Positions 3,751 through 57,269 of a stretch of DNA of 64,000 bases are shown here, piece by piece (within the stretch, counting starts at the first letter, position 1; each line of letters opens with the position of its first letter). The position numbers and the translations under genes are program-made. Under the pieces are notes generated by a model, which worked only from the letters and a program-made list of their open reading frames with translations, made no database searches and was not told the origin of the DNA. Source of the DNA: an uncultured Marinoscillum sp. (GTDB lineage: Bacteria > Bacteroidota > Bacteroidia > Cytophagales > MED-G16); NCBI GenBank assembly GCA_902626505.1, contig CACOFQ010000001.1, positions 5,471-69,470 on the forward strand, written 5' to 3'.

Positions 3751-3805
3751 AAAATAATCTTGGCAGCAAAAATATATTAATTACCACATTTGCCAAAAAT
3801 ACCTT

Positions 3806-22783: not shown

Positions 22784-25700
22784 ATGTTTAGATTTATACT
22801 AGTTAGTTTCTTGTTCTTGGCTTCAAATTTATGGGCTCAAGACAGAACTATTTCGGGTACGGTATCATCAGATGAAGACGGAAGTGGTCTTCCAGGTGTT
22901 AACGTTATCCTTCAAGGTACGACTGTTGGTACTACTACAGATGTCAACGGTTCTTATTCACTGGGTGTACCTAGTGATGGAGGTACCTTAGTATTTTCAT
23001 TTATTGGTTTGGCATCGCAAGAAGTTGCAATTGGTGCTAGATCAGTGGTGGATGTAGTTATGAGCTCTGATGTTGAAGAACTTCAGGAAGTTGTTGTAAC
23101 TGCATTGGGTATCACCAAAGAAAAAGCTGCACTTGGTTATGCAGTAACTTCTGTTGGTGGTGAACAGCTTGAAGCTAGACCCGAAGCAGACATAGCTAGG
23201 TTGTTAAGAGGTAAAGTTCCTGGTGTAGATATCACTTCTCAAAGTGGTGTTTCTGGAACTGGTACTAATATTATTATTAGGGGATATACCTCAATTTCAG
23301 GTTCTAACCAACCTTTATTCGTATTAGATGGTGTGCCAATTGATGCATCAACTTATTCTGATAGAGGGTTTACTGGTGGTGGTGCTACTGCCTCTAGTAG
23401 ATTTTTAGATCTTGATCCTAACAACGTGGCAGAAATTAGTGTGCTTAAGGGATTAGCTGCAACCGTATTATATGGTGAAGCTGGTAGAAATGGTGTGATT
23501 CTTATTACGACGAAAACAGGTCAAGTTGGATCTACGTCTAATAAAGGATTAGAAGTATCATTCAGTCAATCTTATTTTGTGAATCAGGTAGCTAGTGTAC
23601 CAGATGATCAAGATCAGTATGGAAATGGGTGGCAAAATAGAGCTTCAGCTGCATTTAGTAACTGGGGTGCTCCTTTTGACCAACCTAATAGAAATAACTT
23701 GGTTGATGGAACGATTAAACACCCTTACGACAGATCAATATGGAATGGTGTATTCCCTCAGTACGTAGGTGCTAGATGGAAATACCAAGCATATGACAAC
23801 TTACAGAATTTCTTCGTAGACGGTTCTCAACAAAATACTTCTATTGGTATCAACGCTCAAGTTGGTTCTTCATCAATAAAAGCTAATTATGGTTGGACTA
23901 AGGACAATGGATACGTTCCATTTAACGACTACAGAAAACATAACTTTGCTTTAGGTGCTAATACTCAGCTAGCAAATGGTTTAAAAATTAGTGGATCATT
24001 CAATTATATTGAATCTCAAGCTAATAAGCCGCCTGTTAACCCGAGTAGAAACTCTAATGCTACCAATGTATCTTTATTTGGTAATGTTATGTATACTCCA
24101 AGAAGTTGGAATTTATTTGGTTTAGAATATGAAAGACCAGATACTCATGGTAGTGTATATTATAGAGGTAATAACGGGATGCAACATCCTTTATGGACTC
24201 TTAATCACACTAGAGATAGAGATGATGTTAACAGGTTTATTGGTAACTTAACTTTATCCTATGAGATTGCAGACTTCTTAAATCTGACATATAGAATAGG
24301 TCTCGATAGAACTAATTTACTTAACAACTACATGATTAATAAGAATGGAGTTCAAGGGTATGCGGTTCTAGGTGCTTATCAAACGTCAAATAGAAATAAT
24401 GTTAATTACGATCAAATTGTTAACTTAAACGGAGCAGTTGAATTATCTGAAGACTTAGACTTAGATTTCTTAGTAGGTGCAAACCTTAAGTCAAGAAATT
24501 ATGAATTATCTCAGATATTCAGTTCTGATATGTTTATTTTTAACTTCTTTGATCATAGCAACTTTACAGTAACTAACGCTAATACGTACGTATTAAGAGA
24601 AAATACTTATGGTGCTTTTGCAACAGTATCACTTGGTTATAAAGACTGGGGATTCTTAACTGCATCAGCAAGAAATGATTGGACTTCGACTCTAGAGCCT
24701 GAGAACAGATCATTCCTTTACCCATCAGTTTCTTTATCGGTATTACCGTTTGATGCATTATCTGTTAACAATCAAAATCTTAACTTCTTGAAAGTTAGAT
24801 TTGGATTTGGAACATCAGCTGGTTACCCTCCTCCATATTCAACAAGAGGATCGTTAAGCACTGGTACTAAAGTTTTCCAAACTGCAGGTGGTACATTGTT
24901 AAACTCTAATGCTGTTAGTAACTTTTATGCTAACCCAGACTTAACTCCAGAGATACATAAGGAATTAGAACTTGGTATTGAAGGTAAATTCTTTAAGAAT
25001 AAAGTTGGATTAGATGTATCGTTGTTCACAAAAGATTCAGAGGATTTAATTATCGATTTAGATCTTGATGCATCTACTGGATATACTTCTTCAACTGTAA
25101 ACTCAGCATCAATTAATAATAAAGGTGTGGAAGCAATTGTTACAGTAGTTCCTGTTCAGTCTAGAGACTTTACTTGGGAAATAGCTGGTCAGTTCTCATT
25201 ATTGAGAAGTGAAGTGCTTTCAATATCTGATGGTGTTGATCAAATTTATGTTGGTGGTTATGTTGGTAGAGGAAATATCGCTATTCCTGGTTTACCTTAT
25301 GGTATCATGGATGGTGAGGTTATCAAGAGAGATTACGGTAGCTTGGATGGTACAGACCATACTCAGGTACATTGGGATGATAGATTAGACTATATTCCAG
25401 TTGTAGATGGTAATGGTGGTTATCAGCAATTAGGTTACGGTGTAATTGGTGATCCTAATCCTGACTTTGTTTACGGTGTAACAAATACACTAACTTATAA
25501 GTGGGTAACTGCAAGAGTGCAGTTTGACGCTTCTGTAGGTGGAGATGTATTCTCTACTACTAGTTCTACTCTACTTGGTAGAGGTATTCTTGAGGAAACA
25601 GGTTTTGATAGGTTTATCCCAGTTGTTACAAGAGGTTTATCAAATGATGGAACTCCTAATACAACTCAAACTACAGCAAACCAACATTACTGGCCAAATA

Positions 25701-25993
25701 CTGGTGTATTCTATGATGAAAACTCAGTTTATGATGCTTCTGTAATGAGACTAAGAGAAATTTCTCTTTCGTTTGTTGCTCCAAAATCATTCCTTAATGG
25801 TACACCATTTGGAAGTGCTAGTTTAACTATGTCTGCTCAAAACATTTGGCATTATGCATGGAATTTCCCTGCAGGTTCAAACTTTGACCCTGAGGTTATT
25901 AGTTATGGTGCTGGTTCTAATGCTAGAGGTTGGGATGAGATGACTGGTCCTACTGCTAAGAAGTGGGGTGCAACTTTAAGTTTAACTTTCTAA
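22784..25993 (+). CDS. SusC/RagA-family TonB-dependent outer-membrane transporter
   Basis: Signal peptide, carboxypeptidase-regulatory-like domain (ISGTVSSDEDGSGLPGVNVILQGTTVGTTTDVNGSYSL), plug region (VVVTALGI.KEK..LGYAV; IIIRGYTSISGSNQPLFVLDGVPI), a long barrel and a terminal aromatic residue (LSLTF). Confidence 0.9.
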   Translation: MFRFILVSFLFLASNLWAQDRTISGTVSSDEDGSGLPGVNVILQGTTVGTTTDVNGSYSLGVPSDGGTLVFSFIGLASQEVAIGARSVVDVVMSSDVEELQEVVVTALGITKEKAALGYAVTSVGGEQLEARPEADIARLLRGKVPGVDITSQSGVSGTGTNIIIRGYTSISGSNQPLFVLDGVPIDASTYSDRGFTGGGATASSRFLDLDPNNVAEISVLKGLAATVLYGEAGRNGVILITTKTGQVGSTSNKGLEVSFSQSYFVNQVASVPDDQDQYGNGWQNRASAAFSNWGAPFDQPNRNNLVDGTIKHPYDRSIWNGVFPQYVGARWKYQAYDNLQNFFVDGSQQNTSIGINAQVGSSSIKANYGWTKDNGYVPFNDYRKHNFALGANTQLANGLKISGSFNYIESQANKPPVNPSRNSNATNVSLFGNVMYTPRSWNLFGLEYERPDTHGSVYYRGNNGMQHPLWTLNHTRDRDDVNRFIGNLTLSYEIADFLNLTYRIGLDRTNLLNNYMINKNGVQGYAVLGAYQTSNRNNVNYDQIVNLNGAVELSEDLDLDFLVGANLKSRNYELSQIFSSDMFIFNFFDHSNFTVTNANTYVLRENTYGAFATVSLGYKDWGFLTASARNDWTSTLEPENRSFLYPSVSLSVLPFDALSVNNQNLNFLKVRFGFGTSAGYPPPYSTRGSLSTGTKVFQTAGGTLLNSNAVSNFYANPDLTPEIHKELELGIEGKFFKNKVGLDVSLFTKDSEDLIIDLDLDASTGYTSSTVNSASINNKGVEAIVTVVPVQSRDFTWEIAGQFSLLRSEVLSISDGVDQIYVGGYVGRGNIAIPGLPYGIMDGEVIKRDYGSLDGTDHTQVHWDDRLDYIPVVDGNGGYQQLGYGVIGDPNPDFVYGVTNTLTYKWVTARVQFDASVGGDVFSTTSSTLLGRGILEETGFDRFIPVVTRGLSNDGTPNTTQTTANQHYWPNTGVFYDENSVYDASVMRLREISLSFVAPKSFLNGTPFGSASLTMSAQNIWHYAWNFPAGSNFDPEVISYGAGSNARGWDEMTGPTAKKWGATLSLTF

Positions 25994-26012
25994 TTATTAA
26001 ATATTATAAATT

Positions 26013-27764
26013 ATGAAAAAATTAAACAAATTATATTTTATCGTTGCATTCATGTTTATAGGTTACTCGTGTGAGTTAACTGACCTTGATCAGTTAAACA
26101 ACCCGAATGCCGTAACTGTAGAGAATGCAGGTCTTGATTTATATTGGAACCAAGTACAAACTAGCTTTGCTGGTTGGTGGTATGGTAACCAAACGCCTAT
26201 GTTACATCTTGGTAGACAATTATCAGGTACATGGGGTCAGACTTATGACAATGCTTATTTACCAAATAACTTCAATGGATCATGGAGTGGTGTCTACTCT
26301 GGATTAGTTCCAGATATTGATGCTATGATTGCTTCTGGTACAGAGGCTGAATCATGGATTCATGTTGGAGCTGGTAAAATTTTAAAGGGGTATGCTATCC
26401 AAATGCTTGTTGACAAGCACGGTGATATTCCTTTTAGTGAAGCATGGCAAGGAACTGCAAATCTTAGTCCTAAGGTTGATGATGCTGCATCTATTTACAC
26501 TGCTATTGATGCAATGTATACTGAAGCAATTGCTGACCTTAACAAAACTGCTATTGGAGCTCCAGCTGTGGATATCTTCTATGGTGGTGATAAAGCTAAG
26601 TGGATCACTCTTGCAAATACTCTTAAATTCAGACTTGCTCTGAATAAAGGAGACGCTGCTGGAGTTGCTGCTGCATTAGGTGCAGGTGTAATTGATTCAA
26701 AAAGCGAAGATTGGGTATTCCAGTATGGAAGTAACAGACAAAACCCTGATTCTAGACACCCATGGTACGGTGGCGCATATGAGTCCTATGCTGGACCATA
26801 TCAGTCAAATTACTTTATGTGGGAGTTAATGGAAGAAAAAGGTTTTCCTGATCCAAGACTAAGGTATTATTACAAGAGACAAGATCTTGATATGAGTGAT
26901 GAAGATTTATTCACCCTTGATTGCGTTGTTGCAGACACTAGACCAGCATGGTATGATAATCCTTATACTAATGCTTATGGTGACGTTGTAACATGGCCTT
27001 TCTGTGGTGGTAGTAGCTTCACACATACTGATGCACTTGCTGCAAAAGGTTATTGGGGTAGAGATCACATGAATAATGATGGTACTCCTCCAGATGGACA
27101 GAAAAGAACTCATAGAGGTTCTTACCCTGCTGCTGGTGAGTATGATGACGGAGACGCTTCTACTGGTGTAGACGGAGCTGTTGCTGCTGGTATTAAAACT
27201 GTTATGCACACACAAAATGGTGGTGTTGACGGTGGTGGAGGAGACGGTCACGCTCCTTTCTTAATGGCAGCAAACGTTTACTTCATGAGAGCTGAGGCTG
27301 CACTTGACGGTTTTTCTTCTGAAAATGCTGCTGATATGTTAAAATTAGCTATTGAAACTTCCATTTCTTCTGTAATGAGTTACTCTGCTGGTTGGGGACC
27401 TGTCGGTGATGTTAACGGAGATGGTGTAGGTGCTGTACCTGTCGCATTACAAACTGAGAGATATGTTAATTTTGTGATGGATAACTTCAATGCTGCTGCT
27501 GATAATGAGGCTAAAATGGCTATCATCGTCAAGGAGCATAGACTAGCTTCATTCTCTAATGGGATTGAGGTTTATAACGCAATGAGAAGAACTGGACACC
27601 CTCAAGATATGCAGGGTCCAATGAAGACTGCTGATGCTGGTACTTTCCCAAGATTGTTCCCGTATCCTGCTGATTTTTCTAACTTAAATGCAAACGCACC
27701 TGTTAGAACTGATTTAGGAGAGACAGTATTCTGGGATAGAGCTGGTTCAGGTACTTTAAATTAA
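26013..27764 (+). CDS. SusD/RagB-family nutrient-binding lipoprotein
   Basis: Lipoprotein signal (FIGYSC), located directly downstream of the SusC-type gene, with a helical TPR-like N-terminal half and C-terminal FPYPADFSNLN. Confidence 0.85.
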   Translation: MKKLNKLYFIVAFMFIGYSCELTDLDQLNNPNAVTVENAGLDLYWNQVQTSFAGWWYGNQTPMLHLGRQLSGTWGQTYDNAYLPNNFNGSWSGVYSGLVPDIDAMIASGTEAESWIHVGAGKILKGYAIQMLVDKHGDIPFSEAWQGTANLSPKVDDAASIYTAIDAMYTEAIADLNKTAIGAPAVDIFYGGDKAKWITLANTLKFRLALNKGDAAGVAAALGAGVIDSKSEDWVFQYGSNRQNPDSRHPWYGGAYESYAGPYQSNYFMWELMEEKGFPDPRLRYYYKRQDLDMSDEDLFTLDCVVADTRPAWYDNPYTNAYGDVVTWPFCGGSSFTHTDALAAKGYWGRDHMNNDGTPPDGQKRTHRGSYPAAGEYDDGDASTGVDGAVAAGIKTVMHTQNGGVDGGGGDGHAPFLMAANVYFMRAEAALDGFSSENAADMLKLAIETSISSVMSYSAGWGPVGDVNGDGVGAVPVALQTERYVNFVMDNFNAAADNEAKMAIIVKEHRLASFSNGIEVYNAMRRTGHPQDMQGPMKTADAGTFPRLFPYPADFSNLNANAPVRTDLGETVFWDRAGSGTLN

Positions 27765-27782
27765 TTTTAAATTATATATATT

Positions 27783-28730
27783 ATGAAAAATTTAAAACAA
27801 TTATTTATTGGATTCGTGGCGATGCTAACTGCAGTATCCTGTGGAGATCCTGTTTTACCTGTAGAGCTTCAGCCTGAAATGCAATATGGTGCATACGCTA
27901 GGAAGATGTCTCAAACTGGTAAATTTGATTTCTTTGCTATCTCTACTTCACAGATTGATATTCATGTTGAATATTATGACGAGAATGGAGGTAAAAATAT
28001 CTCAACGTATGATATAGAAGTTGAATATATAGACATTACTGGTGGTGGTGCAAATAGTATAGGTAAAAAACCTTTTAGGACTATCAATTCTTCGGAGTTT
28101 GTAGTTAATTCTGATGGTTATTTAAGTTCAGATATTAGTTTAGGATTTGATGCTGCTTTAACAGCACTCGGAGTAACTTCTGCTGATATAACTGGAGGTA
28201 ATACTGTCAGATTCTGGTTTACTATTACTAAAACAGATGGTACAAAATATGACTATAATAATACAGGACCAAACTTAATGTCTTCTAATGCATTCGGTGC
28301 ATTATTTAGATTGAATGTTGGTATTGTATGTCCGTCAGATTGGAAGTTAGGTTCATTATCTGGTACAAATAGTAATGATGGTACTCTCGGTACGTTAGGT
28401 GCTGGTGAAACTACGGCATCAGTTGAACTTACTAGAAAATCTGGTAAGGATAATCAATATCAATTAAGTGATTGGACTCTTGGTTATAGAACACTTAAAT
28501 ACACTGGTACATACTATACTACTGGACCAGTATTTATTGACAACTGTAATGTGGTTTCAATAACTGGTGTTGGTGATTATGGTTATGGTTTCTCTATGTT
28601 ACCTGGTACTGCGTCTGTAAGTTCTGATAGAACAGCATTTACTTATTCGTGGGAAAGTGACTTAGGTGAAGGTGGTGTAGCCACATTAACTTATGACGAT
28701 GGATCACTTTGGCCAGAACTGTACAACTAA
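27783..28730 (+). CDS. Hypothetical surface lipoprotein, positional SusE/F analogue
   Basis: Lipobox (LTAVSCG), 18 nt after susD-like, and the same elevated-GC, Gly/Thr-rich composition as the two upstream genes. I recognise no family motif. Confidence 0.55.
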   Translation: MKNLKQLFIGFVAMLTAVSCGDPVLPVELQPEMQYGAYARKMSQTGKFDFFAISTSQIDIHVEYYDENGGKNISTYDIEVEYIDITGGGANSIGKKPFRTINSSEFVVNSDGYLSSDISLGFDAALTALGVTSADITGGNTVRFWFTITKTDGTKYDYNNTGPNLMSSNAFGALFRLNVGIVCPSDWKLGSLSGTNSNDGTLGTLGAGETTASVELTRKSGKDNQYQLSDWTLGYRTLKYTGTYYTTGPVFIDNCNVVSITGVGDYGYGFSMLPGTASVSSDRTAFTYSWESDLGEGGVATLTYDDGSLWPELYN

Positions 28731-36728: not shown

Positions 36729-36759
36729 TTTGTTATAAATAAAAAAGAATATAATTTTG
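36729..36759 (+). promoter_or_regulatory. Bacteroidota sigma-A type promoter for the tRNA-Tyr/Gly/Thr (and tuf) unit
   Basis: TTTG (36729-36732), 19-nt spacer, TAATTTTG (36752-36759). Matches the TTTG-N19-21-TAnnTTTG consensus. It lies about 47 nt upstream of tRNA-Tyr. Confidence 0.55.
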
Positions 36760-38311: not shown

Positions 38312-38381
38312 AATTTTTAAATTTTTTTTAACAAATTATTTAACTTATTTATTTGTTAAATAATAACAATTATTCTAAATT

Positions 38382-38404
38382 TGCAGGCCGTTGGCCTGCA
38401 TTTT
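38382..38404 (+). terminator. Rho-independent terminator after tuf
   Basis: TGCAGGCC-GTT-GGCCTGCA 8-bp GC-rich stem followed by TTTT. Confidence 0.7.
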
Positions 38405-48200: not shown

Positions 48201-49634
48201 TTTGATGGTATTAGATCAGTTTCTTCGAAGGATAGTGAAGGAAATAAGGTTGAGGTTGTCATGGCTAGAAGTGGAGAAATAAGAATTATAGATGGAAAAA
48301 GTACCACTCTTATATCTAATAATGTTCCTTATGGATCTTATCTACAAGTTAAAGATGGTCAGAAAGTTTCCAAAGGTGATATTTTATGTAATTGGGATCC
48401 TTATAATGCAGTAATTTTATCTGAATTAAAAGGTAATATTGATTTTGAGTCAATAGAGGAAGGTATAACATTTAAAGAGGAATTTGATGAACAAACTGGT
48501 CATAAAGAGAAGGTAATTGTAGAGTGTAGAGATAAAACAAAAAATCCTGCGATTATTGTTAAATCAAAAGATGGTGATAAGTCTTACAACATTCCTGTGG
48601 GGGCTCATTTATCTGTAGAAAAAGGAGATTCTGTAAAACCGGGAACAATACTTTCAAAGATACCTCGTATGATAGGACAATCTAGAGATATTACTGGGGG
48701 TCTACCAAGGGTAACTGAGTTATTTGAGGCAAGAAATCCTTCCAATCCTGCCGTTGTAAGTGAGATTGATGGTGTAGTAACTTATGGTGGAATTAAAAGA
48801 GGTAATAGAGAAATTTTCATTGAATCTAAAGATGGAACAAAGAAAAAATATTTAGTTTCTTTATCTAAACACATTTTAGTTCAAGATAATGATTATGTTA
48901 AAGCAGGATCTCCGTTATCTGATGGAGCTATTACTCCAGCTGATATATTATCAATTAAGGGACCAACAAAAGTCCAGGATTATCTTGTTAATGAGATTCA
49001 AGAGGTTTATAGGCTTCAAGGTGTTAAGATTAATGATAAGCATATTGAAGTAATTGTAAGACAAATGATGCAAAAAGTTATCATTGTAGATCCTGGAGAC
49101 ACTAATTTCTTACAAGATGAGAAAGTTGATAAACTCGTTTTCAAAAATATTAATGACTCTATTTTTGAGAAAAAGGTTATTATAAATTCAGGTGATTCAG
49201 ATAAATTTAAGGATGGACAAATCATTACTTCTAGGGAATTGCGCGATGAGAATTCTGCTTTAAGAAGAAAAGATAAAACAATTATTGAAGTTAGAAATGC
49301 TGATGCTGCTGTATCTAGACCTTCTTTACAAGGTATAACTAGAGCATCATTAGGTACTGAAAGTTTCATTTCTGCTGCTTCATTCCAAGAAACAACAAAA
49401 GTTCTAAGTGAGGCTTCAATTAGAGGTAAAGTTGATGATTTAAGAGGTCTTAAAGAAAATGTTATTGTTGGACATTTGATTCCAGCTGGAACAGGATTAA
49501 GAGAATACGGTGAAATGATTGTTGGTTCTGAGAAAGAATATGATGAATTAATGATGAAATCAGATGATGTTATTTTAGATGATACACCAGTAAATGAAGA
49601 TATTCTAGAAGAGAAAAATCAAGAACAAAAATGA
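45300..49634 (+). CDS. rpoC: DNA-directed RNA polymerase subunit beta'
   Basis: Zinc-binding CHCGKY...CDRCGVEV, catalytic [12 protein letters not shown], across 1444 aa. Confidence 0.98.
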
Positions 49635-49936
49635 GTCAAAAACAAAATCAAATAAATATTGAATTATCTGATGAAGTATCTAAAGGTAAATATGCAAACC
49701 TTGCAATGATAGCTCATTCTAGTAGTGAATTTGTAATTGATTTCATACAACTTATGCCTGGAGTTCCTAAGGCAAAAGTAAACTCAAGAATTATAATTAC
49801 TCCTGAGCATGCTAAGAAGTTCTCCATAGCTCTAAGTGATAATATATCAAAGTATGAAAAAAAATATGATAAAATCAAAGACTTTAATGAGCTCCCAAAA
49901 TTTCCATTAGATATTAATAATGATTCTAACAAATAA
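49631..49936 (+). CDS. DUF3467-family protein (unknown function), coupled to rpoC
   Basis: 101 aa. [18 protein letters not shown]....PG...[15 protein letters not shown] resembles the small protein conserved after rpoC in Bacteroidota. Its start overlaps the rpoC stop (ATGA). Confidence 0.75.
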
Positions 49937-49965: not shown

Positions 49966-49996
49966 TTTGTTAAAGACGTATGAATTTCTATTTTTG
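49966..49996 (+). promoter_or_regulatory. Bacteroidota sigma-A type promoter for rpsL-rpsG-fusA-rpsJ
   Basis: TTTG (49966-49969), 19-nt spacer, TATTTTTG (49989-49996). It lies 20 nt upstream of the rpsL ATG. Confidence 0.6.
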
Positions 49997-50016: not shown

Positions 50017-50397
50017 ATGCCAACGATACAACAATTAGTAAGAAAAGGAAGAAAAAAACTTAAGTCAAAGTCTAAATCACCTGCTTTGGATTCCTGTCCT
50101 CAAAAAAGGGGTGTCTGCACAAGAGTTTACACTACAACTCCTAAAAAGCCAAATTCAGCTATGAGAAAAGTTGCAAGAGTTAGATTATCTCATGGTAAAG
50201 AGGTAAATGCATATATTCCTGGTGAAGGGCATAATTTACAGGAACACTCTATAGTTTTGATCCGTGGTGGTAGGGTAAAGGACTTACCCGGAGTAAGGTA
50301 TCACGTCATTAGAGGTACACTTGATACGGGAGGTGTTGATGATAGAACCCAAAGGAGATCAAAATATGGTGCTAAAAGGCCAAAGGTTAAAAAATAA
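50017..50397 (+). CDS. rpsL: 30S ribosomal protein S12
   Basis: [12 protein letters not shown]...[16 protein letters not shown]...[13 protein letters not shown]. Confidence 0.98.
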
Positions 50398-50400
50398 TAA

Positions 50401-50868
50401 ATGAGAAAATCAAAACCTAAAAAAAGATATTTCTTGCCAGATCCAATTTTCAAGGATACACTTGTGACTCAATTTGTTAATAATCTAATGCATGATGGTA
50501 AAAAGAGTATATCTTATTCTATCTTTTATGATTCTCTTAAAATTGTTGAAGAGAAAACTAAAGAAAAGGGGTTAGATGTATGGAAAAAAGCATTAAATAA
50601 CGTTATGCCTTCTGTTGAGGTTAAAAGTAGAAGAATTGGTGGTGCTAATTTTCAAGTTCCAATAGAAGTTAGGCCTTCAAGAAAAATTACTTTAAGTCAA
50701 AAATGGTTAATTCAGTTTGCAAGAAATAGAAATGAAAAATCAATGGTTGACAGACTTGCAAATGAAATTATTGCTGCATCAAAAGGTGAAGGCGGTGCTG
50801 TAAAAAAGAAGGATGACACTCACAGAATGGCAGAAGCTAACAAAGCATTTTCACATTTTAGATTTTAA
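50401..50868 (+). CDS. rpsG: 30S ribosomal protein S7
   Basis: DGKKS....I.Y........[18 protein letters not shown] motifs. Confidence 0.97.
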
Positions 50869-50878
50869 TTAATAAGTA

Positions 50879-53017
50879 ATGGCAGAAATAAAAGACTTAA
50901 GCTTTCTAAGAAATATAGGTATCATGGCTCATATTGATGCTGGAAAAACAACAACTACAGAAAGAATTTTATATTATACTGGTTTAAGTCATAAAATTGG
51001 TGAAGTTCATGATGGAGCTGCTACTATGGATTGGATGGAACAGGAGCAGGAAAGAGGTATTACAATTACTTCAGCTGCTACAACTACATTTTGGAAATAT
51101 CCTACTCAGCAAGGTAAAATAGTTGATACCACTAACGATTATAGGGTAAATATTATAGATACTCCTGGTCACGTAGACTTTACAGTAGAGGTTGAAAGAT
51201 CATTAAGAGTATTAGATGGTGCAGTTGCATTATTTTGTGCAGTGTCAGGTGTTGAACCGCAATCAGAAACAGTATGGAGACAAGCAGATAAATATAAAGT
51301 TCCTAGAATTTGTTTTGTGAATAAAATGGATAGAGCTGGTGCGGATTTTCTTAATGTCGTAAATGAAATTAAGGATAAACTAAATGCAAAACCAGTACCT
51401 CTACAAATTCCTATTGGTGCCGAAGAAAACTTTAAGGGTGTTGTTGATCTTATAACTAAAGAAGCAATAGTTTGGAATGAAACTGATATGGGTATGACTT
51501 ATGAAGTTGTAGATATTCCAGATAATTTGAAAGATACTGTAGATGAGTGGAGACAAAATCTTGTTGAGAATGTAGCTGAGTATGATGATAATCTACTTGA
51601 AAAGTTTTTTGAAGATCCAGATTCAATTACAAAAGAGGAAATGATGAGTGCAATTCGTAAAGCTGTAATTGATATGTCTTTTTCTCCAGTTATGTGTGGT
51701 TCTGCATTTAAAAATAAAGGAGTTCAAGCACTTCTTGATGCTGTTTGTTCTTATTTACCATCACCATTAGATCTACCTCCAGTAAGTGGTACTAACCCAG
51801 ATAATGATGAGGAAGTAACTAGAAAACCTAATAACGAAGAGCCTTTTGCCGCTCTTGCTTTCAAGATAGCAACTGACCCCTTTGTTGGAAGATTATGTTT
51901 CTTTAGAGTATATTCAGGTACTTTAGATGCTGGATCTTATATCTTTAATAACAGAAATGGTAAAAAAGAGAGGATATCAAGATTAATGCAAATGCATTCA
52001 AATAAACAGAATCCAATCGATAAAGTAGTTGCTGGAGATATTTGTGCTGGTGTTGGATTTAAAGATATAAAAACTGGTGACACACTCTCGGATGAAAAAT
52101 CTAAGATAGTATTAGAATCAATGTCATTCCCTGATCCAGTTATTGGTTATGCTATAGAACCTAAACAGCAAGCTGATGTTGATAAACTTGGTATGGCTGT
52201 TAGTAAATTAATAGAGGAAGATCCAACTCTTAGAGTAAATACTGATGAGGAAACAGGCCAGACTGTCCTTAGAGGTATGGGGGAGCTTCATCTTGAAATT
52301 ATAATTGATAGATTAAAAAGAGAGTTCAAGGTAGAAATAAATCAGGGTGCACCTCAAGTTGCTTACAAAGAATCTATTCAGTCATCAACTACTCATCAAG
52401 AAGTTTATAAGAAACAGTCTGGAGGTAGAGGTAAGTTTGCAGATATAGTATTTGAAATTGGACCTAGAGATGAGGATGCAGAGGGAGATGGTCTTCAATT
52501 TGTAAATCAGATAGTTGGTGGTAAAATTCCTAGAGAATTCATTCCAGCTGTTGAAAAAGGCTTTAAAAATGCAATGGAAAATGGTCCTCTAGCTGGTTTT
52601 CCTGTAGAATCTATGAAAGTTAGATTATATGATGGTTCTTTCCATGATGTTGATTCTGATTCATTATCATTTGAATTAGCAGCTGGAATTGCATTTAAAG
52701 AAGCTGCTAAAAAAGCTAGTCCAGTATTAATGGAACCTATTATGTCTGTTGAGGTTACAACTCCAGATGAATTTACTGGTGGTGTTACTGGTGATTTAAA
52801 TAAGAGAAGAGGTATTATGAAAGGTATGGACATGAAAGGAAATTCTCAAATTATAAAAGCAGACGTTCCTTTATCTGAGTTATTTGGTTATGTTACTGAC
52901 CTCAGAACCTTAAGTTCAGGTAGAGCTTCAGCATCATTAACATTTTCACACTATACTGGTGTTCCAAAAAATATTGCTGAAGGAATTATTTCTAAAGCAA
53001 ATGGAGAATTAAATTAA
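50879..53017 (+). CDS. fusA: Elongation factor G
   Basis: [30 protein letters not shown] and NKMDR, across 712 aa. Confidence 0.98.
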
Positions 53018-53021
53018 TAAA

Positions 53022-53327
53022 ATGGCTCAGAAAATAAGAATTAAGCTTAAATCCTTTGACTACAATTTAGTAGATAAAAGTTCTGATAAAATTGTCAAGG
53101 CAGTAAAGACTACCGGTGCAATAGTAAGTGGACCAATTCCTTTGCCTACTAGAAAAGAAATTTTTACTGTTTTAAGATCACCACATGTAAATAAGACTTC
53201 TAGAGAACAGTTCAAGTTGTGTACTTATAAAAGGTTATTAGATATATATTCTAATAGTAGTCAAACAGTTGATGCACTAATGAAACTTGAATTACCAAGT
53301 GGAGTTGATGTTGAAATAAAAGTATAA
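53022..53327 (+). CDS. rpsJ: 30S ribosomal protein S10
   Basis: IRIKLKSFD...GPIPLPT....[15 protein letters not shown]. Confidence 0.97.
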
Positions 53328-53350
53328 TTTTCTTTTTGAATTTTCTTTTT
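53326..53350 (+). repeat. Tandem 12-mer AATTTTCTTTTT x2 (one G between copies) at the rpsJ / glycanase junction
   Basis: Copies at 53326-53337 and 53339-53350 are identical. The first copy overlaps the rpsJ stop codon. Confidence 0.8.
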
Positions 53351-53367
53351 AATGCATTTACTTCGTG

Positions 53368-56300
53368 ATGCTTATGGCTAAACTTATTATTGCCTTTCAT
53401 ATATTTTTTTTATTAAGTTTTTCATCTTTTTCTCAAAACTCATTAAGTACTTCCGGAAAAGCTATTATAAATGAGATAGGAGATACAATTATTTTAAGAG
53501 GTATGGGACTTGGTGGTTGGATGGTACAAGAAGGATATATGATGGCTCCTGGTGGATTTTCATCTACACAATATCAAATTAGAGATAGACTTATTGAACT
53601 AATTGGACTTCAAGAAACAAATATATTTTATGATAATTGGCTCTCAAATCATGTGAGGAAAATTGATATTGATTCAATGAAACAATGGGGTTTTAACCTT
53701 GTAAGAGCTCCTATTCACTATAATTTATTTACTCAACCTATTGAAAATGAATCATATCCTTTTGCGTATACTGAAAAGGAAAAAGGGTTTCAGTTACTTG
53801 ATTCTCTTTTAAGTTGGTGTAAAGAAAATGAGATATATCTTATGATTGATTTGCACGCTGCACCTGGAGGACAAGGTTATAATGCTGATATTTCAGATTA
53901 TGATCCATCCAAACCCTCACTTTGGGAAAGTGAATATAATCAGCATAAGACAGTTGAATTATGGAAAAGAATTGCAAATAGATACAAAGATGAGGAATGG
54001 ATCGCTGGATATGATCTAATTAATGAACCTAATTGGGATATTCCGGAGGGAGCTCTTTTAAGAGATCTTTATGGGCAAATAACAGATGCAATAAGAGAAG
54101 AGGGAGATAATCATATTTTATTTATTGAGGGAAATTGGTTTGCAAATGATTTTACTGGACTTACTCCACCTTGGGATGATAATTTTGTTTATAGCCCTCA
54201 TAAGTATTGGTCACCTGTAGATCAAGGTTATTTAGATTGGATGTTGCCATTAAGAGATTCGCTAAATGTTCCTCTTTTTGTTGGTGAAACTGGTGAAAAT
54301 TCAAATTTTTGGTACAGAGATGCAGTGAAAGTTTTTGAAGAAAATGGTATTGGCTGGGCTTGGTGGCCATTAAAACGTATAGGTGCTATCCAGCCTCCAT
54401 TGTCAATTAGTTATAATGAAAAATTTAAAGCTATTGTAGATTATTGGAATACTGGTGATATAAAACCATCAAAAGAAGATGCTATTGAGGGATTGAGGCA
54501 ATTAACGGAAGATATAAAACTAGAAAATTGCTTTTATCACAAGGATATTATTGATGCCTTATTTAGGCAACCCTTTTCTTCTGAGACTAAAAAATTTAAT
54601 GATAATGAAATTCCTGGAAAAATTTATGCAACCGATTTTGATATGGGTATAATGGGTGAAGCTTATTATGATGCAGGATCTGAGGCAAACTATGGTGGAG
54701 AGTTTTCTCCTTGGAATAATGGATGGGCCTATAGAAATGATAATATTGATATTCAAGACAATAAGGACCCTCTTTCTAATGGGTACAATGTTGGATGGAT
54801 AGAAAGAGATGAATGGATGAAGTATTCTTTTTCTTTAAACAATGATGGACTATATAATGTAAAGATTAGAGTAGCTACAATCGATGATGATGGGAGGTTT
54901 TACTTTAAGATAAATGAAAATCAAGTAACTGATATGATAGATGTTCCAATAACAGGATCATGGAAGGAATGGGATTATATTCAAATTGATTCACTTGTTT
55001 TAAATAGTACTGATGAAAATTTTATTTTTCACGCAGATCAAGGAACATTTAACCTTAGTTTTTTTGAATTTATTCGTATTGGTGATATATCATTAGTTGA
55101 GACTAAATATGTTTCTTCTTATACCTTGAATGAAAGAACACTTATAATCAATACAAATAAAGATCTTGATTCATCATCAAATTTGAATTTTGCTGATTTT
55201 AGTGTTTTTATTAATGAAGAGGATATTTCTATAAATAATATTTATTTCAATAATTCTCCAAGGTCTATAGAAGTTGAGTTGAATCATGCTATTCAGCCTA
55301 CAGATTCAATTAGAATAACTTATTTAGGTAATTCAGTCAAATCTGTTGATAATATGTCGTTAAAGAAATTTACAGATGTGCTTGTGAAAAATAGAATTCC
55401 ATTTATTCATGATATACCTGGTAAAATTGAGGCAGAGCATTTTTTTTCTCAAAAAGGAATGGAGTTAGAAAACACTACAGATGAGGGTGGTGGATTTAAT
55501 ATTGGTAGCCTTAATAATGGAGATTTTGCTGATTATTATGTCGACATAAAAACATCCGGTACTTATAATGTTACTTATAGGGCTGCTGCTGACTCATCTT
55601 ACTCTGAAGGAGGCCAGGTTGAACTTAGTATTTATGATACAAATACAAACGTATTTAACTTCTTACAAAATTTAATTATTCCACCTACAACTGGTTGGCA
55701 AGATTGGGAAAATACAAGTAAGGCATTAAATTTAGACTCTGGTGAATATCAAATTAGACTTAAAGTCCTTTCAGGTCCTTTTAATTTAAATTGGTTTTCT
55801 TTCGATAATTCAGTCTCCGTTGGAATACCAATACCTGGATATGTTCAAGCCGAAGATTTTGTTTTCCAAGAAGGAATCTCTTTAGAAATGTCAGAAGATG
55901 AGGGTGGTGGTCAGAATATTGGATATTTAGATTCGGCAGATTATGCGGACTATATCGTAGATGTAACAAAACCTGGTTTGTATGATTTAAGTTATAGGGT
56001 AGCTTCTGATGGTAGTCAAGATTATGCTAATGGTGGGACAATCCAATTGCAATTATTGGAGGATTCAACAGTTAAAGAGTTACATACCATATCATTTCCA
56101 CCTACAACTGGTTGGCAAGATTGGGTAACTTTTAAAAACTTCCCTAAAATTAATTTAGAATCTGGAGATAAAAAGATTAGATTATTATTTACTAAAACCC
56201 CATTTAATTTAAATTGGATCCTATTTGAGGATTTTGAAGGTACTGTTCTTGGACTGGAGAAAGATGATCTTAGGATAGATGTTTTCCCTAATCCAACGGA

Positions 56301-56520
56301 TAAGTTTATAAATGTTATTTCAGATTATGTTCCAAAAAATAATATTAATTATAAATTAGTCGATCTAAATGGGAAAATTATTTACGAAAGAAATAAACTT
56401 TATAGATCAAAGATTTCAGAGAAAATAGATATAAATTCATTAAAATCAGGCCTAATATTTCTTGTGATAAGTGAGGAGGATCAACTATTAGAAATTAAGA
56501 AAATTCTTATTAAAAATTAG
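53368..56520 (+). CDS. Secreted glycoside hydrolase family 5 (beta-glucanase-like) with three CBM6-like modules and a T9SS C-terminal sorting domain
   Basis: Signal peptide, then a GH5 core (GLGGWMVQEGYM, acid/base in DLINEPN, nucleophile in FVGETGEN). Three modules start IPGK/IPGY and end FNL(N/S)(W/F)F; the last two carry PPTTGWQDW. C-terminal DVFPNPTDKFINV...LKSGLIFLVI is a T9SS type-A CTD. The start could be GTG 53365, ATG 53368 or ATG 53377. Confidence 0.85.
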   Translation: MLMAKLIIAFHIFFLLSFSSFSQNSLSTSGKAIINEIGDTIILRGMGLGGWMVQEGYMMAPGGFSSTQYQIRDRLIELIGLQETNIFYDNWLSNHVRKIDIDSMKQWGFNLVRAPIHYNLFTQPIENESYPFAYTEKEKGFQLLDSLLSWCKENEIYLMIDLHAAPGGQGYNADISDYDPSKPSLWESEYNQHKTVELWKRIANRYKDEEWIAGYDLINEPNWDIPEGALLRDLYGQITDAIREEGDNHILFIEGNWFANDFTGLTPPWDDNFVYSPHKYWSPVDQGYLDWMLPLRDSLNVPLFVGETGENSNFWYRDAVKVFEENGIGWAWWPLKRIGAIQPPLSISYNEKFKAIVDYWNTGDIKPSKEDAIEGLRQLTEDIKLENCFYHKDIIDALFRQPFSSETKKFNDNEIPGKIYATDFDMGIMGEAYYDAGSEANYGGEFSPWNNGWAYRNDNIDIQDNKDPLSNGYNVGWIERDEWMKYSFSLNNDGLYNVKIRVATIDDDGRFYFKINENQVTDMIDVPITGSWKEWDYIQIDSLVLNSTDENFIFHADQGTFNLSFFEFIRIGDISLVETKYVSSYTLNERTLIINTNKDLDSSSNLNFADFSVFINEEDISINNIYFNNSPRSIEVELNHAIQPTDSIRITYLGNSVKSVDNMSLKKFTDVLVKNRIPFIHDIPGKIEAEHFFSQKGMELENTTDEGGGFNIGSLNNGDFADYYVDIKTSGTYNVTYRAAADSSYSEGGQVELSIYDTNTNVFNFLQNLIIPPTTGWQDWENTSKALNLDSGEYQIRLKVLSGPFNLNWFSFDNSVSVGIPIPGYVQAEDFVFQEGISLEMSEDEGGGQNIGYLDSADYADYIVDVTKPGLYDLSYRVASDGSQDYANGGTIQLQLLEDSTVKELHTISFPPTTGWQDWVTFKNFPKINLESGDKKIRLLFTKTPFNLNWILFEDFEGTVLGLEKDDLRIDVFPNPTDKFINVISDYVPKNNINYKLVDLNGKIIYERNKLYRSKISEKIDINSLKSGLIFLVISEEDQLLEIKKILIKN
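55414..56229 (+). repeat. Tandem duplication of CBM6-like modules inside the GH5 gene (period about 417 nt)
   Basis: Modules at about 55414-55806 and 55831-56229. A 30-nt block TTCCACCTACAACTGGTTGGCAAGATTGGG is identical at 55679-55708 and 56096-56125. Confidence 0.8.
56269..56517 (+). other. T9SS (Por) C-terminal secretion-signal domain of the GH5 protein
   Basis: LRIDVFPNPTDKFINV...YKLVDLNGKIIYE...INSLKSGLIFLVI...KKILIKN follows the TIGR04183-type pattern. Confidence 0.7.
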
Positions 56521-56565
56521 GGTGTTATTTCCATTTTTTTTTAAATAAAAATAAGTTTTCTATTA

Positions 56566-56596
56566 TTTGATGAGATAGCTTAAATTGTTATCTTTG
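56566..56596 (+). promoter_or_regulatory. Bacteroidota sigma-A type promoter in front of rplC
   Basis: TTTG (56566-56569), 19-nt spacer, TATCTTTG (56589-56596). It lies 40 nt upstream of the rplC ATG. Confidence 0.55.
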
Positions 56597-56636
56597 CACA
56601 CATTTTGTATAAAGATTATAACCGAATTATATAGCA

Positions 56637-57269
56637 ATGTCTGGAATAATTGGAAAAAAGTTGGGGATGACAAGTATATTCGACTCAAGAGGTAAGAGTA
56701 TAGGGTGTACCGTAATCCAAGCTGGTCCTTGTTTTGTTACTCAAATAAAAGATAGAGATAAAGACGGTTATAGAGCAATTCAGTTATCATTTGATGATCT
56801 CAAAGCTAAGAAAATATCAAAATCAATAAAAGGCCACTTTTCCTTATCAAATGTTCCTCCAAAAAAGAAAGTTGTTGAATTCCGTAATTTTAGAAAAGAG
56901 TTTGATTCCAAGGTTAAATTAGGAATGGAAATTAATATAGACGATGTTTTTAATGAAAATGAGTTTTTAGATGTAACATCAATTTCTAAGGGTAAAGGGT
57001 TTCAGGGTGTTGTAAAAAGACATAATTTTGGTGGAGTTGGTCAAAACACGCATGGTCAACATAATAGAAATAGAGCTCCTGGATCAATTGGTGCTGGATC
57101 TACGCCGTCTAGAGTATTTAAAGGAATGAGAATGGCTGGAAGAACCGGAGGTGAAAAAGTAACAATGCAAAACTTAAAAATTTTAAAAATTGATCAAAAA
57201 GACAATTTAATATATGTTGGTGGGTCTGTACCTGGATCTAAAGATTCTTACGTTGTTTTATCAAATTAA
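56637..57269 (+). CDS. rplC: 50S ribosomal protein L3
   Basis: [12 protein letters not shown]...G....[11 protein letters not shown] and [14 protein letters not shown]. Confidence 0.97.

Follow-up and report, generated by a model that had tools for sequence, protein, structure and literature searches.

How does a gene for a secreted glycanase come to stand inside the ribosomal-protein gene cluster of a bacterium, and is it expressed within the ribosomal-protein transcript? The question, whose second half could raise the interest of the locus, is posed by a 64,000-nt stretch of contig CACOFQ010000001.1 (hereafter the window, meaning the whole stretch analysed). The 3' end of rpsJ is at 53327 and rplC starts at 56637, and between them the map of open reading frames (ORFs) shows one same-strand ORF of 1051 amino acids (53365-56520, counted from GTG 53365). 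A preliminary description of this DNA had proposed that a single ORF splits rpsJ from rplC, and the map agrees with it (rpsJ 53022-53327, rplC 56637-57269). The ORF encodes a glycanase in which a GH5 catalytic domain is combined with three CBM6 modules and, at the C-terminus, a sorting domain (CTD) of the type IX secretion system (T9SS). The genes rpsL through rpsJ, the glycanase gene, and rplC with the remaining S10 and spc genes are all on the plus strand.

The account that we favour, and in which we have good confidence as a whole, is as follows. An ancestor of a clade of uncultured marine Bacteroidota would have gained a gene for an endo-beta-glycanase, exported through the Sec pathway and the T9SS, in the spacer between rpsJ and rplC, the loose joint of the cluster in this phylum, rpsJ being welded to fusA. 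The gene has since been passed on vertically under purifying selection, and in some sublineages it has decayed to a pseudogene and afterwards to a stub of 21 codons. The genes from rplC onward would be transcribed from a perfect promoter of the sigma-A type that lies 40 nt ahead of rplC, whether the glycanase gene is present or not. The glycanase gene itself would be transcribed by default through read-through, and a weak promoter-like element before its start codon may add to this read-through or replace it.

Conservation, age and loss of the inserted gene

The same slot between rpsJ and rplC holds an orthologue in more than 25 independent marine assemblies, which come from different projects; identity to the window protein is 60-99% where the full length is covered and 47-58% where contig ends cut the gene short. 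The protein search returned a graded set of full-length relatives whose identity declines from 99% to 60%, followed by a drop to 40-51%; an exact look-up of the window protein gave no record. On the Pfam-annotated contigs of the relatives at 87, 76, 64 and 60% identity (loci L001-L004), the order is rpoC, DUF3467, rpsL, rpsG, fusA, rpsJ, GH5, rplC, rplD and onward, and a species-representative genome found through its rpsJ (L008) has this order as well. A further 36 marine metagenome contigs came from a search for exact copies of 28 nt within the rplC promoter block described below, and most of them have the GH5 gene in this slot. All related contigs are marine. Homologues at 46-49% identity lie at other genomic locations, one of them in a locus with SusC/SusD and GH3 genes. 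The nearest two genome records bear the names 'uncultured Marinoscillum sp.' and 'Cytophagales bacterium', and Marinoscillum is placed in Cytophagales by NCBI; the preliminary assignment to Flavobacteriia is therefore doubtful, as far as the recorded labels of metagenome-assembled genomes (MAGs) can be trusted.

The identity of the GH5 protein follows that of rplC across loci (Spearman 0.87, n=18, a descriptive value only, as the loci share ancestry). For the window against L001, the dN/dS ratio is 0.09 at a dS of 0.77, and deeper comparisons are saturated at synonymous sites. Because GH5 identity tracks rplC, dN/dS is low and synonymous sites are saturated at depth, these comparisons indicate an old insert that has been inherited vertically under purifying selection. 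The preliminary description did not foresee an insert that is ancient, vertically inherited and repeatedly lost.

A recent origin of the arrangement, whether by horizontal insertion, as cargo of a mobile element or as an assembly chimera, might be suspected simply from a non-ribosomal gene inside a cluster that is normally contiguous. An imperfect 35-nt inverted pair (74% complementary) does bracket the gene at 53313-53347 and 56497-56531; considered as a signature of mobility, it does not stand out from the other pairs of this AT-rich DNA and is probably due to chance. No convincing terminal repeats were found at the glycanase gene and no recombinase gene was seen. The GC content of the gene (0.31) and its GC3 (0.19) are those of its neighbours, with no compositional step, in agreement with the early remark that the insert is as AT-rich as its flanks. 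Against a recent origin stand, besides this host-like composition, the same layout in more than 25 independent assemblies, GH5 identities that fall to 60% in step with rplC, and the synonymous saturation between lineages. Since the slot is shared by many assemblies, divergence tracks rplC and selection has acted, artefact and recent transfer are excluded; we regard a recent origin as extremely improbable, and the comparative sequence data already refute it.

Several related loci have no intact glycanase gene at the junction, and some of them retain a trace of one. In the closest insert-less genome (L009; rpsJ 97% and fusA 88% identical), the spacer is 189 nt. Right after the rpsJ stop (region L009:6304-6495) it encodes IFLIILEVDRSLEVRKIIIDK followed by a stop codon, a peptide that corresponds to the final 21 residues of the GH5 sorting domain. 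This stub scores 22.0 bits against a hidden Markov model (HMM) of 21 distinct orthologue C-termini, and none of 3000 dinucleotide shuffles reaches that score (maximum 10.9). The same 21-codon CTD stub stands directly after the rpsJ stop in three metagenome loci (L095, L112 and L117), at 26-34 bits (top 33.6). Another locus, L114, carries an 838-nt glycanase pseudogene (L114:1039-1876, minus strand of the locus) in which an internal deletion has joined the N-terminal ~65 codons to the last ~160 codons, and which also contains a stop codon and a frameshift. Spacers of 98-138 nt in L092, L105 and L123 have no detectable glycanase trace. Insert-less loci fall at at least three places among the insert-bearing ones in a single-gene neighbour-joining (NJ) tree of rplC, which carries no support values. 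The simplest reading of these loci would be one ancestral insertion followed by several losses.

The joint after rpsJ and the predicted rplC promoter

Upstream of the insert, rpsL (50017-50397), rpsG (50401-50868), fusA (50879-53017) and rpsJ (53022-53327), as assigned by the ORF map and Pfam, are tightly packed with spacers of 3-10 nt; downstream, rplC (56637-57269) heads the unit rplC-rplD-rplW-rplB-rpsS and onward. Both rpsJ and rplC have the expected domains (S10 and L3). We surveyed the junction in 76 assessable Bacteroidota genomes outside the clade. The two genes are adjacent in 69 of them, separated by a different insert in one, and without rplC within 6 kb of rpsJ in the remaining six. 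The median spacer is 12 nt between fusA and rpsJ and 140 nt between rpsJ and rplC, the latter being the larger in 65/68 genomes. Because of this difference, rpsJ in Bacteroidota travels with the str genes, and there is a soft joint after it. The rpsJ-rplC spacers of these genomes (L010-L087) are up to 521 nt long, yet mostly lack the canonical TTTG-N19-TAnnTTTG motif.

The different insert is found in a Polaribacter MAG (L029, CALJHU010000002.1, 6307-9423). It is 3.1 kb long and contains three small ORFs of 205, 195 and 247 aa, all without a Pfam match and each with an N-terminus resembling a signal peptide; 264 nt ahead of rplC stands a full promoter motif. The six genomes without nearby rplC are all labelled Sphingobacteriaceae (L021, L032, L045, L062, L065 and L085, from Sphingobacterium, Mucilaginibacter, Pararcticibacter and Pseudosphingobacterium), and in this family the junction appears to be fully disconnected. 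In Sphingobacterium yanglingense (L032), rpsJ is followed by an SDR gene and by porin-like, MFS-like and transporter-like genes, of which Pfam confirms SDR only. The preliminary description had called both of its readings of the locus unusual, on the premise of an exceptionally conserved adjacency. That premise is weakened by the looseness of the joint, the Polaribacter insert and the six broken junctions. To that extent related genomes do carry unrelated genes at this junction, which the same description had named as a finding that would speak against it.

The window was scanned for the Bacteroidota sigma-A type of promoter, TTTG-N18-22-TAnnTTTG (-33 TTTG, -7 TAnnTTTG). A perfect match stands before rplC on the plus strand, with TTTG at 56566-56569, N19 and TATCTTTG at 56589-56596, and ends 40 nt before the rplC ATG; both boxes are thus present upstream of the gene start at a distance within the 19-21 nt typical of Bacteroidota promoters. 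The motif belongs to a conserved 60-nt block (56547-56606, +), recognised by motif scan and cross-locus comparison, that comprises the promoter, the A/T-rich DNA upstream of it and the first part of the leader. This block is near-invariant in all seven loci retrieved by protein (the window, L001-L004, L008 and the insert-less L009), and the other parts of the spacer diverge. Its 5' part, AAAAATAAGTTTTCTATTATTTGA, lies outside the pattern used for the metagenome search and is near-invariant in 37 distinct sequences.

Seven full motifs occur in the 64-kb window, against 4.4 expected by chance, and five of the seven are directly upstream of tRNA or translation operons. Besides the one before rplC, they precede a tRNA (3767-3797, -), a tRNA cluster ahead of tuf (36729-36759, +), a tRNA ahead of secE-nusG-rplKAJL-rpoBC (38352-38383, +) and rpsL. 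The last of these, TTTG-N19-TATTTTTG at 49966-49996 (+), ends 20 nt before ATG 50017; a promoter had been placed there from the outset, and it is the predicted start of the rpsL-rpsG-fusA-rpsJ transcription unit. Between rpoC and this promoter is a DUF3467 gene (49631-49936) that overlaps the rpoC stop by 4 nt, and the arrangement rpoC, DUF3467, rpsL promoter is kept in every related locus examined. Ordinary genes of the window have 3-5 of 6 promoter matches, which suggests that a perfect motif is the mark of the strongest promoters in this genome. Outside the clade, 3/70 rpsJ-rplC spacers have the full motif and 8 further ones the -7 box only. A full motif on the minus strand in the 5' part of the glycanase gene (53618-53648), pointing towards rpsJ, is not conserved in L001-L004 and was set aside as probably due to chance.

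Other signals were sought around the junctions. Between 49500 and 58000, Rfam detected neither a leader nor a riboswitch nor any other RNA family, and across the whole window it gave tRNAs only; the rplC leader has no Rfam family and showed no significant structure on folding. Scans of the window for sigma-70-type promoters and for terminators gave counts not above those of shuffles and no site at either junction. Taken with the conserved block, the perfect motif supports a predicted promoter from which the downstream ribosomal genes, rplC onward, would run with or without the glycanase gene. Of the two alternatives first offered for the locus, a glycanase tied to ribosomal transcription or an S10 operon that was split and re-promoted, it is the second that the sequence supports directly, with a perfect, deeply conserved promoter motif 40 nt before rplC.

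Transcription of the glycanase gene

In the window, 37 nt separate rpsJ from the GH5 gene (about 40 nt by the first estimate); in most lineages the spacer measures 37-49 nt. A terminator scan and folding of both junctions gave no terminator-like hairpin in the window, either after rpsJ (z = -1.17), where its absence had already been remarked, or after the GH5 stop. In L004, the stop codon of the GH5 gene is covered by a 17-bp A/U hairpin (z = -1.9). With no terminator in sight, read-through from rpsL-rpsG-fusA-rpsJ would be the default expectation. Codon adaptation was tried as a proxy for expression and was uninformative: the window has 30% GC and a GC3 of ~15% throughout its genes, ribosomal genes do not stand apart from the others, and the GH5 gene is mid-range. 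Codon usage gives no help here because mutational bias swamps the expression signal.

The same 37-nt spacer contains a bipartite element, TTG-N19-TTACTTCG (53336-53365, +), with the geometry of a Bacteroidota promoter. In the form TTG-N18-21-T(T/A)A(C/T/A)T(T/A)CG it is found in 17/19 orthologous junctions, the spacer being otherwise divergent, and it is missing from the L114 pseudogene locus. Where a downstream ATG is identifiable, this codon is conserved (53374 in the window) and follows the element at a distance of 7-10 nt. The pattern, which was derived after viewing the data, is matched by 0.45% of shuffled spacers. This candidate element could be a weak promoter of the gene's own, giving a nearly leaderless mRNA, or a translation-initiation signal. 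Translation of the glycanase probably starts at ATG 53368 or ATG 53374 instead of GTG 53365.

Two stricter versions of glycanase transcription can be weighed against these data. The region might be a single superoperon, in which the glycanase gene has no working promoter and depends only on read-through from rpsL, with growth-rate-coupled expression, and in which transcription continues into rplC and is topped up by the promoter there. Such an arrangement would agree with the short spacer of most lineages, with the lack of a terminator-like structure at both ends of the gene in the window, with the single strand on which all genes lie and with the poor -7 consensus of the element upstream. But the element has kept its promoter geometry in 17 of 19 lineages despite the divergence of the spacer, a secreted protein of 1051 aa made at ribosomal-protein transcript levels would be costly, and if rplC needs a new and perfect promoter, the transcription that reaches it through the insert is presumably too low. 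We therefore consider a single superoperon possible, yet on balance unlikely. We are distinctly doubtful, too, that the glycanase gene is insulated, that is, expressed only from its own weak, possibly regulated promoter, with rpsJ transcripts ending in the T-rich spacer at an unrecognised type of terminator and with no regulatory meaning in the location. T-rich runs do follow rpsJ, the element is conserved as TTG-N18-21-TTAyTTCG at its set distance from the ATG and has been lost in the L114 pseudogene, and the glycanase is dispensable in several sublineages. However, 37 nt leave little room for a terminator and a promoter together, the spacer of the window forms no hairpin (it was folded, and the spacers of other lineages were read only), and the -7 box is non-consensus and unused elsewhere in the window.

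If the glycanase were expressed mainly through read-through from rpsL-rpsG-fusA-rpsJ, its ribosomal location could be a selected regulatory device. The enzyme would then be a constitutive beta-glucan 'sentinel', made in proportion to growth and without a regulator of the kind found in polysaccharide utilization loci (PULs). We offer this only tentatively, and think it improbable as it stands, but selection on the location would explain why the gene has stayed in its slot through synonymous saturation. The setting is a streamlined, AT-rich marine lineage. Were read-through true, an oligotrophic marine bacterium would show unusual constitutive expression of an extracellular polysaccharide hydrolase, and this would bear on the sensing and turnover of laminarin-type glycans in the ocean.

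Several points weigh against our overall account, in which old inheritance and losses are combined with a separate rplC promoter and glycanase transcription by read-through, with or without the upstream element. Promoter activity, read-through and termination are all deduced from sequence. The number of independent losses is uncertain, given a tree of one gene built by NJ without support values. The rplC promoter may be older than the insertion. Since the 36 metagenome loci were chosen by 28 nt of the promoter block, the invariance of that stretch among them is circular, and clade members with a mutated promoter would have escaped the search. The element before the GH5 start matches just 4/6 of the specified -7 positions, and TTAYTTCG is neither enriched nor used elsewhere in the window, so that the element may not be a promoter.

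The predicted enzyme and its relation to known systems

An HMM check placed every domain named in the preliminary description (GH5, three CBM6 modules and the T9SS CTD) above its cutoff, with PF00150, PF03422, PF18962 and TIGR04183; all coordinates below are on the plus strand. A signal peptide, MMLMAKLIIAFHIFFLLSFSSFS followed by QN, was read off the translation by eye at the N-terminus (53365-53433). The GH5 catalytic domain (aa 88-336, 53626-54372) matches PF00150 (Cellulase) with E 1.8e-30 and 106.8 bits (cutoff 23.5). It has both catalytic glutamate motifs of GH5, the NEP acid/base and the GE-x-G nucleophile. Across 66 full-length orthologues, DLINEPN (aa 217) is invariant and VGETGEN (aa 306) varies solely between V and I at its first position; by these motifs, and by analogy, Glu221 is the predicted acid/base and Glu308 the predicted nucleophile.

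CBM_6 (PF03422) matches in three stretches with E 1.1e-57 and 194.1 bits (cutoff 28.9). Module 1 is CBM6/CBM35-like (aa ~473-569, 54781-55071) and was delimited by self-comparison; it is covered by a CBM_35_2 stretch in Pfam (457-567). Module 2 (aa 689-814, 55429-55806) is the best CBM_6 stretch and was also found by PDB search and self-comparison. Module 3 (aa 828-955, 55846-56229) was found by self-comparison, with the direct repeats D1 and D2 as further evidence, and is 46% identical to module 2. Between modules 1 and 2, aa ~578-688 (55095-55428) gave only sub-threshold matches (SWM_repeat 20 bits, swm_rep_I 21 bits) and may be an Ig-like spacer domain. The T9SS type A CTD occupies aa 973-1049 of 1051 (56281-56511), with Por_Secre_tail (PF18962) at 36.7 bits (cutoff 27) and NCBIfam TIGR04183 at 26.5 (cutoff 23), and together with the N-terminal Sec signal it gives the protein both marks of a type A cargo. 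This architecture implies Sec export and T9SS secretion, glycan binding through the three CBM6 modules and hydrolysis by a retaining GH5 mechanism. The gene is a further member of already known enzyme families.

The substrate is probably a beta-glucan of the laminarin type, and our best guess is an enzyme of the CBM6-bearing GH5 kind from marine PULs. CBM6-bearing GH5_46 enzymes are parts of putative laminarin PULs in marine Bacteroidetes (PMC6794258). The guess is made because of these enzymes and because the CBM6 modules, with PDB matches at E 2e-16 to 2e-6, are closest to the beta-glucan/laminarin-binding CBM6s 1uxz, 5fui and 1w9s. A distant homologue in a PUL with SusC/SusD and GH3 (L006) gives a further lead to the substrate, and architecture and literature give a lead to membership in GH5_46. 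The best-matching solved chain for the catalytic domain, 9ku5 (E 2.2e-36), is the Geobacillus putative endoglucanase GE32, which was deposited as a putative beta-xylosidase; it was set aside as a guide to the substrate. At its own locus, the glycanase gene has neither adjacent SusC/SusD nor partner enzymes or a PUL regulator, its neighbours being ribosomal genes. Some 25 kb upstream, the window has a pair of genes for a SusC-like protein of 1069 aa and a SusD-like protein of 583 aa (22784-27764), followed by a 315-aa lipoprotein-like ORF without Pfam match (to 28730), and the GC of 22784-28730 is 0.35-0.41 against a window mean of 0.30. This pair was considered as the original PUL partner of the glycanase and rejected, since it resembles neither the SusD nor the lipoprotein that accompany the distant homologue in L006.

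In E. coli, the promoter of the S10 operon and a leader controlled by L4 lie upstream of rpsJ. The window resembles this operon in having a strong, here predicted, promoter and a short leader ahead of a long operon with rplC-rplD-rplW-rplB. It differs in that the promoter comes after rpsJ, directly before rplC, and is of the TTTG/TAnnTTTG type, and in that no structured leader or Rfam family was found in the window. The locus also suggests that the functional operon boundary in Bacteroidota lies after rpsJ instead of before it.

The enzyme itself has close parallels. Like the CBM6-containing GH5_46 enzymes of putative laminarin or beta-glucan PULs ('variant C', Krueger 2019, PMC6794258), it joins GH5 and CBM6 in marine Bacteroidota, and distant homologues of the window glycanase (44-50% identity) sit in loci with SusC/SusD and GH3. 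Unlike those enzymes, whose likeness to it is by architecture, it is encoded outside any PUL, without adjacent SusC/SusD, GH16, GH3 or regulator. With T9SS-exported multimodular GH5 cellulases, such as those of 'Ca. Paraporphyromonas polyenzymogenes' (PMC5831590), it shares GH5, binding modules and a type A T9SS CTD, and it differs from them in habitat, CBM set and genomic context.

Literature searches gave nothing specific on the arrangement rpsJ, GH5, rplC in Bacteroidota. For Gammaproteobacteria and Bacilli, a reconstruction of 163 alterations to the cluster by Brandis (2021, PMC8046335) found that the first step towards disconnection is typically the entry of a few genes at the boundary of two operons, as with bfd-bfr or ilv-leu between str and S10. 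As in those cases, the translation cluster has taken up one or a few unrelated genes where two operons meet, descendants have kept the changed gene order, and some lineages disconnect fully, a state represented at the joint between rpsJ and rplC by Sphingobacteriaceae. The present case differs in phylum and in the joint used, which is between rpsJ and rplC and not between str and rpsJ, one gene further downstream because rpsJ in Bacteroidota is packed against fusA. The cargo is also different, being a secreted polysaccharide hydrolase and not a cytoplasmic housekeeping function. The locus provides a clean natural case of the opening of bacteria's most conserved gene cluster, by insertion of a single gene at its loosest joint and later stepwise decay in some lineages. 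As such, it is a fresh example of the kind of rearrangement known from Gammaproteobacteria and Bacilli, with an unusual cargo.

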